A DNA stretch of 64,000 bases from an uncultured bacterium (GTDB lineage Bacteria > Bacteroidota > Rhodothermia > Balneolales > DATFMH01), in assembly GCA_963787205.1 (NCBI GenBank), contig CAWBCD010000009.1:67524-131523 (forward strand). Reading direction: 5' to 3'. Positions within the stretch are counted from its first letter, which is position 1, and each line of letters begins with the position of its first letter. The notes beneath the pieces are model-generated. The model was not told the origin of the DNA. It searched no databases and was given only the letters and a program-made list of their open reading frames with translations. Both the position numbers and the translations under genes were made by a program. This document shows, piece by piece, positions 25,863 through 53,749 of this stretch.

Positions 25863-25918
25863 AATTAGGATGTCAGGCAGGGGTGATTCGCGAATCACCC
25901 CTGCCTGACATCCTAATT
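25863..25918. repeat. 56-bp perfect palindrome (28-bp arms)
   Basis: AATTAGGATGTCAGGCAGGGGTGATTCG|CGAATCACCCCTGCCTGACATCCTAATT, checked base by base. It lies between convergent genes and could act as a bidirectional terminator. Confidence 0.95.
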
Positions 25919-26527: not shown

Positions 26528-26559
26528 ATGTAGGGGTGATTCGCGAATCACCCCTACAT
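26528..26559. repeat. 32-bp perfect palindrome sharing a 24-bp core with 25879-25902
   Basis: ATGTAGGGGTGATTCG|CGAATCACCCCTACAT. The core AGGGGTGATTCGCGAATCACCCCT is identical in both palindromes. Confidence 0.95.
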
Positions 26560-48150: not shown

Positions 48151-49041
48151 TTACAACACGCCTTTTGAACTGGGAATATTGTTCAGATTACGTTCATCGC
48201 GGTGGACACACTGACGCAGAGCCCGTGCAAATCCCTTAAAGCAAGCTTCAACCTGATGATGATCGTTTTCACCGGTGAATTCAACATGCAACGTGGCCTC
48301 CATTTTAATGGCCAGCGAGTAAAAGAAATGATGAACCATTTCGGTCGGAAAATCCCCGACAAACTCCCTGTGGAATTTACCTTTGAAAACCAGGTACGGG
48401 CGTCCGGAAAGGTCGAGAGCCACCAGCGCGCGCGCCTCATCCATGGGCAATACAAACCCGTAGCGTTCAATGCCTTTTTTGTCGCCGATGGCCCGGTTGA
48501 TTGCAGTACCCAATGCCAGAGCGGTGTCTTCAATAGTATGATGTTCGTCAATCTCCAGATCACCCTTGCATTGGATGCTGAGGTCGATTTGTCCATGCCT
48601 GGCTATCTGATCAAGCATGTGATCAAAGAACCCAATTCCGGTACTGATATCTGGTTTCCCCTCGCCATCAAGGTTGATATCCACATGGATATCGGTTTCA
48701 CCGGTTTTCCGGTGAATATGGGCCGTACGTGAAGGGAAAAGCAGGTTGTCGACGAGCTGCTCCCAGGTAATTTGAGAGGCCAGCTCCTTGTCTGATGAGT
48801 CGAAGAGAAACAGCCCGGAGCCATGACCACGGACAGTATAATCGGCAGGTTTTCCGGCAATAGGCTGAATGATGATCGACTCCTGTCTTATCAGGCGTAC
48901 CTGTTCTTCAGAAAGTGTGATGTCACCCATCAATTCCCACCCGTTTTGTAACAGCCTGCGCATCCCGGAAAGGCTGCCAGCTCTGAGATAAAAGTCTGGG
49001 TTGACAGGCTTAATAGCAGTTGGGTGAATTAGTATCTTCAT
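48151..49041 (-). CDS. hisB: Imidazoleglycerol-phosphate dehydratase with a non-canonical ~125-aa N-terminal domain
   Basis: The C-terminal ~195 aa is a textbook IGPD ('RKTGETDI', 'GIGFFDHMLDQIARHG', 'GDLEIDEHHTIEDTALALG', 'NDHHQVEACFKGFARAL'). The ATG at 49041 forms an ATGA overlap with the hisC stop. Confidence 0.9.
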   Translation of the reverse strand: MKILIHPTAIKPVNPDFYLRAGSLSGMRRLLQNGWELMGDITLSEEQVRLIRQESIIIQPIAGKPADYTVRGHGSGLFLFDSSDKELASQITWEQLVDNLLFPSRTAHIHRKTGETDIHVDINLDGEGKPDISTGIGFFDHMLDQIARHGQIDLSIQCKGDLEIDEHHTIEDTALALGTAINRAIGDKKGIERYGFVLPMDEARALVALDLSGRPYLVFKGKFHREFVGDFPTEMVHHFFYSLAIKMEATLHVEFTGENDHHQVEACFKGFARALRQCVHRDERNLNNIPSSKGVL

Positions 49042-50105
49042 GGCAGCAGTGATGTTAACTGGTTTATCAACAGATCGTTTTCTAATCGCGTTCCGACCGT
49101 GATACGGAGGCAGTTTTCGCAATGGATCTGATCACCCCGATATCGTACGATGATCCCTTGTTCAGCGAGCCGCCCGTAAACAGAAAGAGCATCAGGCACA
49201 CGAACAAGCAGAAAGTTGGCATCAGAAGGGAATACCTTTTCAACGGATGGGATATTCGTGAGTGCTGAACGCAATCGTTTCCTCTCTTCCAAAAGCTCAG
49301 AAACATGTTTTTGCATGAGTTCTGTGTTGTCCACAGCTTTTTCAGCAGCCTGAAGAGTGAGTTTATTAATGTTGTAAGGTGCCTTCACGCTCATCATTAA
49401 CCGGATGATTTCTGTTGATGCAATGGCGATGCCAAGACGCAGCCCGGCAAGACCGAAAGATTTAGAGAGCGTCTGCAGAATAACAAGATTTGGAAATTCA
49501 GCAATGCGCCCGGAAAGACTTTTTCTCGTACTGAAATCAATGTAAGCCTCGTCAAGAACGACAATCCCCGGATAGGAATGGATGAGAGTCTCAATCTTTT
49601 CGAGACTCAATTCATTGGCTGTTGGATTGTTCGGGGAGCATAGAAAGAGCAGTTTGGATTTCTCGCTTGCCTGTTCCAAAATGTGAGCGGGCTCCAGGTC
49701 GAAGTCCGGTGTAAGGGGCACTGAAGTAATGCCACAATCCTGTATCGATGCAGCCACTTTGTACATGCCGTACGTAGGCGGGGTTATGATAATGTGATCG
49801 ACGACGGGTCTGCAAAAAATCCGGATTAAAAGATCTATGGCTTCATCGCTTCCGTTGCCAACGAAAACATTTTCAGTAGAGACTCCCCGGAAAGCGGCAA
49901 GTGCTTTGCGAAGCTTCTGCTGATGAGGATCAGGATATCGATGCAGCGAATCGGGATCATCGATGTTGGCACCGAGGGCATTTTCATTGGCATCCAGCAA
50001 GATACCTTCCTCGTAATCATCCCGGGCGCACCGGTAAGGCGTCAGTTCCAGGATATTGGGCCTGACCAGCTTTTCAAGTTCAAACTGTGTAATGGAGGGT
50101 TTCAT
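49038..50105 (-). CDS. hisC: Histidinol-phosphate aminotransferase
   Basis: It has 'LDANENALG', 'YPDPHQQKLRKALA', 'NPNNPT' and 'TLSKSFGLAGLRLG' (the PLP lysine). Confidence 0.94.
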   Translation of the reverse strand: MKPSITQFELEKLVRPNILELTPYRCARDDYEEGILLDANENALGANIDDPDSLHRYPDPHQQKLRKALAAFRGVSTENVFVGNGSDEAIDLLIRIFCRPVVDHIIITPPTYGMYKVAASIQDCGITSVPLTPDFDLEPAHILEQASEKSKLLFLCSPNNPTANELSLEKIETLIHSYPGIVVLDEAYIDFSTRKSLSGRIAEFPNLVILQTLSKSFGLAGLRLGIAIASTEIIRLMMSVKAPYNINKLTLQAAEKAVDNTELMQKHVSELLEERKRLRSALTNIPSVEKVFPSDANFLLVRVPDALSVYGRLAEQGIIVRYRGDQIHCENCLRITVGTRLENDLLINQLTSLLP

Positions 50106-50128
50106 ATTGTCATTAAAAACGTAGGGGA

Positions 50129-51424
50129 TCAGGATTCTTTTAATTGTTGCAGACGCAGTTCAACGGCCTTTTTATGGGCTTCCAGTTGTTCAACTTCTGC
50201 CATCTTCATAACGGTCGGGCCCAGTGTTTTCAGTCCGGACGGAGACAGCTCCTGAACCGTGATTTGTTTGCGGAAGGTATCTGTGGATACCCCGCTATAC
50301 ATGCGGGCATAACCATACGTCGGCAACGTGTGATTGGTACCCGAGGCATAATCGCCGGCGCTCTCAGGAGACCATGGACCCAGGAAAACAGAACCAGCAT
50401 TCATCACATGATCCAAAATACGCTGAGGGTCTTCCGTATTAATGATGAGATGTTCGGGTGCGTATTGATTTGAAAAAGCCACTGCATCGGCTTCGGTTTG
50501 AACTTTGATGGCGTGACTTTTAGACAGGGCTTTTTTTGCCGTATCACGACGTGGCAGAGCTTCGAGTTGAGCGTCAAGTTCTGCCTGCATTCCATGGAGA
50601 TCAAAACCGTCGATGGCTACGAGGATGACTTGGCTGTCCGGCCCATGCTCAGCCTGGGACAAAAGATCAGCGGCGACAAATTTAGGATTCGCCTGCTCGT
50701 CAGCGATGACCAAAACCTCCGAGGGGCCGGCCGGCATATCGATGCTGATCATCGCATCAGAATTCTGCAACAGCATTTTGGCGGCCGTGACATATTGGTT
50801 ACCCGGACCAACGATCTTGTCAACTTTGGGTACTGATTCAGTCCCGTAGGCAAGAGCAGCGATAGCCTGTGCGCCACCGGCTTTGAGAATTACCTTCACT
50901 CCAAGCCGTTCGGCAATATATTTGATTTCCGGAGCGATGTTACCATTTTTGTCCGGTGGCGTTGCAATGACAATTTCGCGACATCCTGCGATTGCAGCCG
51001 GGATGCCAAGCATAAGAGCAGTTGAGGGGAGAATGGCCGATCCGCCGGGTACATATAATCCGACGCGCTCAATCGGTCGTGCCACCCGCCGGCAGAGAAC
51101 GCCCCGTACGGTTTCGACTTCCAGCTCTATTCCAATCTGTGCCTGGTGAAAACGGTAGACGTTAGTCCATGCTGTGTCGAAGGCTTCTTTGACATCTTTG
51201 CTGAGCTTGCGGGCGTTATTCGTACCCGGATTCTCAGTTGGTTTTTCCAGATCAGTCCCATCGAATTTTTTTGTGTATTCCAGAAGAGCCTCATCACCGC
51301 GTTGACGAACTTGATCGAGAATCTCCTGTACTCGTTCATAGATGTCCGTGCTGTTAATTCGCGGCCTTGCGCAGAGATCTGCCCGCTGCTCTTCACTTAA
51401 ATTTGAATAGACATTTACATCCAT
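50129..51424 (-). CDS. hisD: Histidinol dehydrogenase
   Basis: It has '[17 protein letters not shown]', '[13 protein letters not shown]', '[14 protein letters not shown]', '[11 protein letters not shown]' and 'YAPEHL'. Confidence 0.95.
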
Positions 51425-51434
51425 GATCTCATCC

Positions 51435-52304
51435 TTAAAGAATCATATTCTGAATAGGCAACATGACGATACCGGTAGCTCCGGCTTCTTTCAGTTTTTC
51501 CATGACTACCCAGAATTCCCTGATGGAGATGACAGAATGGATGGCGATCATATCCGGGTTGGCGAGCGGTAAGACAGTCGGGCTGTTCAACGATGGAATG
51601 ATATGTGAGATTTTTTCCAGAGATGACCGCGGTGCATTCATCATGATATACCGGCTCTCATCTGCTGTCTGCTGACCACGAATGCGTACCAGAAACTTAT
51701 CGATGAGATCTTGTTTATCCTGGCTGATGGGTTTGCTGGTTTGAATGAGTTGGGTCTGCGACTCCAGAATGGTATCCAGCTCAATCAAACCGTTTGCCTT
51801 GAGTGTACTTCCGGTTGATACCAGGTCGCAAATAGCATCAGCTACATCCAGAGCAGGCGTTATTTCGACCGCACCTGAAATAGTGATGATATCTACGTCG
51901 ATTCCCTGGGACTCGAAGAAACGTTGTGTCAGCCGGGGATAACTGGTGGCTACTCGTTTTCCCTGGAAATCCTCAACCTTTCGAATATCAGAACTTTTTG
52001 GAGCGGCCAGCGAGAGGTGGCAATGTCCATAGTTGAGATCGAGCAAGACCTGGACGTCGGCATCTCGTTCAGCAGTGACATTTGCACCGACGAACCCAAT
52101 GTCGCAGACACCATCCTGCACATATTCGGGGATGTCGTCATCCCGGATAAGCAGGATCTCAACATCGAAGTTGCGGCTGCGAACCATCAGGCGGTTTTTA
52201 TAGCCGTCAAATTCAAGGCCGATGTTTTTCAGCAGGGTTACCGTTTCGTCGGTCAGACGTCCATTTTTCTGTATGCCAATGCGTAATGATGTACTGGTTT
52301 CCAC
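51435..52304 (-). CDS. hisG: ATP phosphoribosyltransferase, long form (GTG start)
   Basis: It has '[11 protein letters not shown]', '[22 protein letters not shown]', '[14 protein letters not shown]' and a C-terminal regulatory domain. Confidence 0.93.
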
Positions 52305-52439
52305 GGGTACTAATCTTTTTTTGAGTTATAAATAATTGGATTTTCTAAACAATAAACAAGCATAATGCATGAATGGTGTTAACAGTTGTGTCGTTCGGAA
52401 AAGCTCGCTGATGGGTAGGGAGGTCACGCTGACCAGGAT

Positions 52440-52487
52440 TCAGTGAGCCGAATGGTGATGATGATGCGAATGGCAATGTCGATGCAA
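52440..52487 (-). promoter_or_regulatory. Candidate his leader peptide (minimal form TTG-HRHCHSHHHHHSAH-stop; in-frame GTG at 52556 would give 38 aa)
   Basis: My own translation of the minus strand: TTG CAT CGA CAT TGC CAT TCG CAT CAT CAT CAC CAT TCG GCT CAC TGA. Nine of 14 sense codons after the start are His. It ends 135 nt upstream of hisG. Confidence 0.5.
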
Positions 52488-52611
52488 GGCAATGAGGATA
52501 TGGGAGCTTTCCAGTGCCCTGTCAAATATGCTTGATATGTCCGTTGTTTCTATCACGACAGCGAAGTTACTGAAACATCATTAAAGATGCATGAGTTAAC
52601 GATAATTTTAT

Positions 52612-52641
52612 AGTAGTGGAAGTAGTGAGTAGTGAGTAGTG
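52612..52641. repeat. Heptamer array AGTAGTG (ga) AGTAGTG AGTAGTG AGTAGTG
   Basis: There are four units, one offset by 2 nt, followed by TTGCAAG-TTTGCAAG-TTGTGAC. It lies in the divergent region between the his leader and the aldo/keto reductase gene. Confidence 0.85.
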
Positions 52642-52762
52642 AGACCTGTTGCAAGTTTGCAAGTTGTGACCTATCCCGACGAGACTTCATGAATCTTCTT
52701 TTGCACAAATGTGTTATAGCCACAAACGAATTCAGAATATATTTAAGTAAGCAGAGATAATT

Positions 52763-53749
<987 letters not shown>

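Follow-up and report, generated by a model that had tools for sequence, protein, structure and literature searches.

A putative near-leaderless histidine leader-peptide gene upstream of hisG in an uncultured Balneolales bacterium and its relatives

Does the histidine operon of a Balneolales bacterium sense its end product through the ribosome and, if so, with what parts? The question is raised by a 64,000-nucleotide (nt) stretch of contig CAWBCD010000009.1, from an uncultured member of the Bacteroidota (this whole stretch is called the window below, and all positions refer to it), in which a short open reading frame (ORF) rich in histidine (His) codons precedes hisG on the minus strand. Leader-peptide attenuation is a textbook mechanism in Proteobacteria and needs a ribosome close behind RNA polymerase. 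In Bacteroidota and related bacteria translation begins without Shine-Dalgarno pairing, the primary sigma factor is a different one, and transcription-translation coupling has been little studied. A first-pass annotation of the window had proposed the ORF as a leader-peptide attenuator outside Proteobacteria, and its reading of the ORF, the coordinates, the His counts, the run of five His codons, a pairing at 8 of 9 positions across the stop codon, a small inner hairpin and a TTTT tract is confirmed in every detail. The idea of a His leader peptide controlling hisG outside Proteobacteria now has strong comparative support, with ORFs at the same place in most Balneolales and on an Ignavibacteriaceae-like contig, preceded by a promoter box of their own. 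Judged from these comparisons, the element is very likely a real His leader-peptide regulator, a ribosome-based histidine sensor built differently from the one in Escherichia coli.

The minus-strand frame from GTG 52556 to TGA 52442–52440 encodes VIETTDISSIFDRALESSHILIALHRHCHSHHHHHSAH. His makes up 10 of its final 20 codons, among them the CAC at 52443–52445 immediately 5′ of the stop, and the frame holds no in-frame ATG and an in-frame TTG at 52487. Between the stop and the GTG with which hisG begins (52304) there are 135 nt. The features that define the leader are:

52440–52556, minus strand: leader ORF, 38 codons plus TGA, GTG start.
52452–52466, minus strand: five-His run CAT CAT CAT CAC CAT, read from the sequence.
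52562–52569, minus strand: promoter element TAACTTCG, resembling a −7 box, 5 nt before GTG 52556; the Bacteroidetes consensus is TAnnTTTG.

The leader ORF is the sole site in all six frames of the window with at least five His in 8 codons, and 17 places reach at least four in 8; CAY trinucleotides occupy 3% of window positions. Its His density is beyond chance, because this site stands alone in the window and because the same enrichment is found upstream of hisG in relatives.

HisG relatives from a species-representative genome set were Balneolales (Balneolaceae, Gracilimonas, Fodinibius, Rhodohalobacter and Cyclonatronaceae; 80 loci), in which a leader was scored as a stop-free frame with at least four His in 8 codons. 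Such a frame, ending 70–135 nt before hisG, is present in 60 of the 80 (one extra outlier ends at 286 nt). In a scan of both strands, His-rich windows numbered 74 and 17 in the pair of 150-nt bins that precede hisG in sense orientation (91 in 300 nt), as against 0–4, about 1, in every other bin. Comparison of the hisG upstream regions, suggested in the first-pass annotation as a check, finds a His-rich frame conserved in these 60 loci, and in the clade of the window it finds compensatory changes in one candidate helix, described below as A:T3. About a quarter of the Balneolales hisG loci lack a His-rich ORF (L006, L007, L011, L015, L024, L063, L065, L068, L074 and L075), including two Cyclonatronaceae (L006 and L068) and a lineage with a divergent gene starting within about 175 nt upstream of hisG, so the leader appears to have been lost or replaced several times.

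Metagenome contigs also carry His-rich leaders, some of them with a HisG only about 50% identical. One such leader encodes MNFNTLYHHHHFNSHMLCRC, and the HisG of its contig groups with proteins named Ignavibacteriaceae. The best match of the metagenome scan had 69% identity, and closer relatives were obtained by protein search and contig look-ups. Together, Balneolales loci and metagenome contigs give a family of 104 distinct leaders, in which His accounts for 33% of the last 25 codons, the last sense codon is His in 49 (that of the window included) and the consecutive His number 2–6 in relatives compared with 5 in the window. CAY triplets number 834 in frame, compared with 39 and 45 in the two alternative frames, where 87 and 58 stops occur; since His density was the criterion by which the leader frames were picked, some of this contrast is inherent in the selection. 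The evidence from start codons and promoter boxes does not depend on that choice of frame and so escapes the bias. The peptide sequences drift between relatives while the in-frame His codons and the position before hisG persist. The family presents two of the features generally looked for in a leader-peptide attenuator, namely a co-oriented upstream ORF rich in codons for the end product, and conservation of this enrichment and position while the peptide drifts.

The same picture is seen at close range in the clade of the window, defined by HisG identity (L161–L163, 97%; L164, 95%; L003 and L165, 94–95%; L166, 86%). Every member keeps an uninterrupted frame between GTG and stop despite a divergent middle, which in L166 is rewritten as YMMPEAAAYRAARPAV where the window has SIFDRALESSHILIAL, and L166 also carries a 6-nt in-frame deletion within the His run. 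Further out, L167 and L168 (74% HisG identity) have 35-codon ORFs with HHHHHH or HHHH.

Where the leader starts was addressed with a family-wide search for TAnnTT(T/C)N followed 2–8 nt on by an in-frame start and a frame uninterrupted to the stop. This arrangement is found in 72 of the 104 leaders. Box and start are 4 nt apart in 36 of them and 5 nt apart in another 26; the start is GTG in 47, ATG in 23 and TTG in 2, and the median ORF length is 25 codons. Exact TAnnTTTG boxes occur 43 times just before the ORFs and in 2 of the 104 spacers. Over the window as a whole TAnnTTTG is not enriched (35 found, 42.7 expected), so only the position of the box relative to the leader start is informative; a motif scan of the spacer between the window leader and hisG found none, and a sigma-70 promoter scan showed no enrichment, as expected for the lineage. 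In the window clade TAACTTCG, the 5-nt gap and the GTG are kept (L003, L161, L164 and L165), and L167 and L168 have TATATTTT, a 5-nt gap and then GTG. When the family is aligned on the box, a TTTG-like −33 element emerges about 20 nt upstream, with an A/T-rich stretch beyond. This is the −33/−7 promoter layout that has been described for Bacteroides, and in B. thetaiotaomicron only about 3.7% of 5′ untranslated regions (UTRs) are shorter than 10 nt (PMC7366714). As the box corresponds to a −7 element, transcription is expected to start on the start codon itself or no more than a few bases from it, and we infer from the position of the box that the leader transcript is leaderless or nearly so.

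Two starts had been offered for the leader, GTG 52556 and TTG 52487. Since its box and spacing fit the family pattern and are kept in the clade, the GTG is favoured, and we assign it with moderate confidence. The box that would favour the TTG, CATATTTG at 52530–52523, is not kept in L161 (CATATTAG), L003 (CATATTTT) or L166. CTG 52514, considered as a further start, reads TCG in L003 and L165.

Two other observations concern this end of the transcript. The hexamer ACATAT (52533–52538 in the window) recurs family-wide about 16–24 nt past the leader start, for example in L035, L058, L167 and L168; it is read as CAT ATC (His-Ile) in most lineages and as GAC ATA TCA or AAC ATA TTG in the window clade and L167/L168, and this use of two frames suggests that what is constrained is the DNA or RNA sequence, not the peptide. 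In the Rhodohalobacter group (L050, L056, L058, L062, L100 and L107), a conserved CACU in CACUACCC, just past the first U-rich tract and ahead of a second T-run, offers a pairing partner for the start region (A)AGUG; such a pairing would be a contact between the 5′ end and the 3′ end of a short leader transcript.

The RNA on which a leader ribosome could act is centred on a stem that spans the stop codon. The elements concerned are:

52440–52448, minus strand: 5′ arm (T5) GCTCACTGA, the last two sense codons and the stop.
52396–52411, minus strand: 3′ arm (T3) TCAGCGAGC (52411–52403) with the tract TTTTCCG (52402–52396), from sequence and fold.
52422–52434, minus strand: inner hairpin GGTCA-GCG-TGACC, inside the loop of the stem.
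52486–52520, minus strand: in-ORF hairpin, AGGGCA (52520–52515) with TGCCTT (52491–52486), from minimum-free-energy folds, with segment A in its loop.
52504–52513, minus strand: segment A TGGAAAGCTC, candidate partner of the 3′ arm and its T/C tract, from duplex energy and covariation.
52305–52439, minus strand: leader-to-hisG spacer, 135 nt, C 25% and G 13%; C-rich, G-poor, little structured past the stem and with no promoter box.

GCTCACTGA pairs with TCAGCGAGC at 8 of 9 positions, with TTTT (52402–52399) next, and folding returns this stem as the structure of lowest free energy (−15.2 kcal/mol; z = −2.1 relative to dinucleotide shuffles). It is kept in all six clade members aligned (94% of cells paired), with a loop of 28–41 nt; L166, with GCTCAC/GTGAGC, turns the A·C mismatch of the window into A-U, and L161 has one pair fewer. 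The inner hairpin is kept in relatives, L003 and L165 having insertions on both sides of it followed by GTTTTA. In the same alignment the in-ORF hairpin has 92% of cells paired, with one-sided changes only. It is present in most lineages, and for Balneola/Gracilimonas (GAUGUCC/GGACAUC) RNAalifold gives 12 one-sided changes that preserve pairing and one break. Across the 104 leaders the region from −18 to +35 nt around the stop is more stable than shuffles (mean z −1.32; 29% below −2), and its flanks are near shuffles (ORF body z = −0.24; distal spacer z = +0.12, mean minimum free energy −2.5 kcal/mol). The arms of the stem vary by lineage (GUGCA/UGCAC, GUACA/UGUAC, ACGC/GCGU, GUAGC/GCUAC, UCUGUGC/GCACAGA, UCCGGU/ACCGGA and GCUCAC/GUGAGC), and in the Rhodohalobacter group RNAalifold returns a 7-bp stem with a 32-nt loop and a U-rich tract after it, without double compensatory changes.

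The first-pass annotation had seen no antiterminator, and indeed no partner for the 5′ arm of the terminator, as a classical antiterminator would supply, is found by eye, by minimum-free-energy folding or by folding with a masked ribosome, in which a 29-nt footprint was put on successive His codons. A different candidate pairing does exist. The tract GAGCTTTTCCG (52406–52396), which includes the ‘T-run’, is complementary to TGGAAAGCTC (52513–52504) within the ORF, and this helix (A:T3) and the stop-spanning stem (T5:T3) are mutually exclusive because both use GAGC (52406–52403). Energies of the A:T3 duplex, in kcal/mol, are −12.7 (window), −15.4 (L161 and L164), −15.1 (L003), −13.9 (L165) and −13.2 (L166), and the duplex beats shuffled upstream sequence by 3.2–3.9 standard deviations (window, L161 and L164; window z = −3.4). 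In the six-sequence alignment 85% of cells are paired, two pairs are changed on both sides from A-U to G-C in L003 and L165 (columns 47/171), and a G·U becomes G-C in L161 and L164; the covariation score is equalled by 17 of 500 shuffles. The masked fold of L161 switches to A:T3. Family-wide, pairing of the 3′ arm and tail with the upstream ORF is slightly above chance (mean z −0.5, p = 6e-4). The evidence for A:T3 as an alternative to the stop-spanning stem, and a non-classical one with no 2:3 helix, is suggestive, not conclusive.

These parts can be assembled into a mechanism. We consider it reasonably probable that the ORF is a leader-peptide gene analogous to hisL, which reads the supply of charged tRNA-His and sets hisGDCB expression through alternative pairings under the control of the ribosome. 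The genes concerned are:

51435–52304, minus strand: hisG, 289 amino acids, Pfam HisG and HisG_C.
50129–51424, minus strand: hisD, Pfam Histidinol_dh.
49038–50105, minus strand: hisC, Pfam Aminotran_1_2.
48151 to about 49040, minus strand: hisB, Pfam IGPD.
48151–52304, minus strand: putative regulated operon hisGDCB, from the Pfam matches.

The Bacteroidetes-type promoter (52569–52562) would start the transcript at or a few bases from GTG 52556, and a ribosome would translate the 38-codon ORF. With His-tRNA plentiful, it would clear the ten His codons, terminate at TGA 52442–52440 and depart, whereupon the last codons GCUCACUGA could pair with UCAGCGAGC in a stem-loop of −15 kcal/mol across the stop codon, and transcription would terminate within the spacer, whose sequence is C-rich and G-poor, with the weak U-run or Rho as the agent. 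With His-tRNA scarce, the ribosome would stall on the His run (52466–52452) or on the final His codon with its footprint over the 5′ arm, the 3′ arm and U/C tract (52406–52396) would be left to pair with ORF segment 52513–52504 behind it, and RNA polymerase would continue into hisG. Since the regulatory codons lie on or beside the 5′ arm, a ribosome awaiting His-tRNA would block the stem, and occlusion of this arm, with the 3′ arm freed for the upstream segment, is the most likely form of the switch. The ORF, its conservation and position, the spacing of the promoter box, the stems, the composition of the spacer and the lack of a second promoter box are observed; translation, the transcription start, stalling, the switch between pairings and any termination belong to the model. 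The effect of the stem on polymerase may be that of a weak intrinsic terminator, of a Rho event on the C-rich tract, or of both.

Several points weigh against this account. The relatives are metagenome-assembled genomes or metagenome contigs. The box of the window deviates from the consensus, with C for T at position 7, and the −33 element is weak in the window itself. The region 52300–52560, whose folding the first-pass annotation had proposed as a search for mutually exclusive structures, is as a whole no more stable than shuffles (z = +1.1); of its parts, the local stem is. The stop-spanning stem shows no double (compensatory) changes in the six-sequence alignment, and the covariation of A:T3 rests on just six related sequences. 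The stop codon is enclosed by a helix in 87% of leaders and in 78% of shuffles, a modest excess, for which reason the energy z-scores were relied on. In the masked fold of the window the stop-spanning stem stays until the footprint reaches codon 33 or beyond and is then lost, with A:T3 not adopted. A terminator scan of leader and spacer finds nothing. Only four T follow the stem in the window (TTTT), and this run is not conserved, varying in the five closest relatives (L161–L164, TTTC; L165, TTCT; L003, CCCT; L166, ATCTTC); the terminator proposed earlier is not supported as a canonical intrinsic one. Lastly, a ribosome positioned on the stop codon would likewise cover the 5′ arm, and occlusion alone does not obviously separate plenty from starvation; discrimination would therefore need fast ribosome release, the long loop (28–41 nt) or polymerase pausing at the in-ORF hairpin.

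How transcription would end bears on the alternatives. A rather unlikely one keeps the same His-sensing ORF and makes termination Rho-dependent, with the tract of about 190 nt formed by the His codons and the spacer, C-rich and G-poor, as a Rho loading site that is exposed once the ribosome finishes and partly masked or refolded by stalled ribosomes, resembling tnaC, mgtL and speFL. In 78-nt windows across 52530–52340 the C/G ratio is near 2, in the 95th–99th percentile of the window, although part of this C excess is due to the CAY codons. Family spacers are unstructured and average 10% G and 24% C; their median C-minus-G is +0.154, and that of 136 control 5′ intergenic regions from these loci is +0.012 (p = 2e-24). 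The ORF is thus followed, as in Rho-dependent attenuators, by an unstructured tract, rich in C and poor in G, that is at least some 80 nt long; the U-run is not conserved and hairpin-plus-T-run sites barely exceed shuffles in this genome (24 against 18–19 expected), and this scarcity and the spacer composition fit a Rho loading site. Masking is not self-evident, however, as a ribosome stalled in the ORF leaves the 135-nt spacer bare, and at least 5 U in 8 follow the stop-spanning hairpin in 46% of leaders compared with 27% at random spacer positions, a hint of intrinsic terminators in many members.

A further alternative is a classical attenuator, in which the stem 52448–52440/52411–52403 with TTTT is an intrinsic terminator and a conventional antiterminator uses its 5′ arm (2:3 against 3:4). 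We regard this as unlikely. The −15.2 kcal/mol stem is followed by UUUU in the window, and convincing stems with U6–7 exist in other members, for example L035, L056, L058, L070 and L083, but in the closest relatives the run reads UUUC, UUCU, CCCU or AUCU, the loop is 28–41 nt, the terminator scan is negative for leader and spacer, and neither inspection nor minimum-free-energy or ribosome-masked folding gives the 5′ arm a partner. In L003, L165 and L166 a T-run lies after or just downstream of the inner hairpin (GTTTTA in L003 and L165; CTTTCTTTTT between inner hairpin and 3′ arm in L166), as if a T-run behind one hairpin or another were kept. On sequence grounds, many family members look like intrinsic terminators with unusually large loops; many, the window clade included, do not.

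Post-transcriptional action, by which a stalled ribosome would free a sequestered hisG start region or shield the 5′ end of a leaderless mRNA from decay, is quite improbable. The near-leaderless layout does resemble that of mycobacterial polycysteine ORFs, which act translationally (bioRxiv 10.1101/834739), and in most members the first His falls around codon 7, where a stalled ribosome would cover the 5′ end; in the window clade, though, it falls at codon 19. Translational attenuation through pairing of the leader 3′ region with the hisG start was rejected, as their complementarity is at chance level (mean z of +0.17 for n = 103 and of +0.11 for n = 94; +1.4 and +0.8 for the window). A functional small His-rich peptide or a chance ORF is very improbable, for although metal binding is within the capacity of His-rich peptides, the ORF keeps its place before hisG across the order and beyond, nothing of the peptide but its His content is conserved, and such a site occurs once in 64 kb and 91 times before hisG against about 1 per bin.

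Two features of the spacer were noted in relatives. L003 (about 2345–2480) and L165 (about 740–980) carry insertions of about 150 and 250 nt between CTTGTTTA and TTGTTTCGAAAATCC. In Gracilimonas/Balneola folds (L008, L009, L013, L016 and others) the spacer pyrimidines AUCCUUUU and UUUCGUUUC pair with hisG codons 3–7 (GAACGAAGGAU); this may be fortuitous, U/C-rich facing purine-rich sequence, or may occlude the start region.

Beyond the leader, a divergent aldo/keto reductase gene begins at 52763. The divergent intergenic region holds a heptamer tandem repeat at 52621–52643 (plus strand AGTAGTG, minus strand ACTACTC/CTCACTA), which precedes the leader promoter box by about 50 nt, with 3.3 copies in the window and 8–12 in close relatives (it is present in L003 and L161–L164). 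Variable copy number beside two divergent promoters could affect their spacing or strength. Elsewhere in the window, perfect palindromes at 25863–25918 (56 nt) and 26528–26559 (32 nt), 653 nt apart, have the common core AGGGGTGATTCGCGAATCACCCCT.

Returning to the leader-peptide reading, its wider extension is tentative, and possible rather than probable: Balneolales, an Ignavibacteriaceae-like lineage and possibly other bacteria of the Fibrobacteres–Chlorobi–Bacteroidetes (FCB) group would share an undescribed class of near-leaderless His-sensing ORFs without a classical antiterminator, in which a stalled ribosome blocks the stop-spanning stem, the freed 3′ arm is captured behind the ribosome, and termination occurs by Rho or at weak U-tracts. 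If true, such a class would be direct evidence of functional transcription-translation coupling in a phylum without Shine-Dalgarno-based initiation. More than 100 distinct conserved and unannotated His leader ORFs also provide a simple natural reporter for the coupling question, and cultured hosts exist (Gracilimonas, Fodinibius and Rhodohalobacter).

The leader ORFs fall into an annotation gap, with no entry in protein collections, Rfam, Pfam or NCBIfam. A cmscan of 51800–53200 against Rfam (E up to 10) gave only a spurious long non-coding RNA match and no His_leader, T-box or riboswitch, and a search of twelve related loci (E up to 1) turned up nothing relevant, with no His_leader or T-box; neither Pfam nor NCBIfam gave a match (E up to 10) for five family peptides, that of the window included, and an exact-sequence look-up did not find the leader peptides in a collection of 15 billion proteins. 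RF00514 (His_leader) is the Rfam family for hisL, the leader of the enterobacterial his operon. By homology the leader is not a member of the hisL family; in function it is best read as a counterpart.

The enterobacterial hisL has seven consecutive His codons. Like hisL, the leader described here is a short His-rich ORF upstream of hisG on the same strand, with its His codons at the 3′ end and a presumed logic by which stalling on them raises operon expression. Unlike hisL, it has five consecutive His amid a scattered ten instead of seven in a row, a GTG start, virtually no 5′ UTR as judged from the box, a Bacteroidetes-type promoter and a stop codon within the 5′ arm of the main stem, and no A:B/C:D/E:F set of alternating helices was found in it, the U-tract being weak and unconserved. 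Leader-peptide attenuators outside Proteobacteria were reportedly predicted through comparative genomics by Vitreschak et al. in 2004, with cases in Bacteroidetes/Chlorobi among them. The present family resembles such non-proteobacterial predictions in that His-codon-rich ORFs before his genes were found by sequence comparison, and differs in that the earlier ones assume terminator/antiterminator pairs. A His leader upstream of hisZ/hisS in bacilli has also been predicted (Naville & Gautheret 2010, PMC2965389). The searchable literature yielded nothing that describes such elements in Balneolales or Ignavibacteria, their leaderless layout or the stop-spanning stem. The mycobacterial polycysteine ORFs share a (near-)leaderless short ORF as first cistron, regulatory codons clustered towards its 3′ end and downstream biosynthetic genes set by tRNA charging (bioRxiv 10.1101/834739). 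Unlike in those, the leader here does not pair with the start region of hisG, which lies 135 nt off across an unstructured spacer. With tnaC-tnaA, mgtL-mgtA and speFL-speF the family shares a leader ORF and a C-rich, G-poor untranslated tract behind it, and ribosome position at the end of the ORF could decide Rho access. These three are Rho-dependent leader-ORF attenuators that sense Trp, Mg2+/Pro and ornithine, partly via arrest peptides; in the Balneolales leaders, by contrast, the signal would be plain codon starvation.

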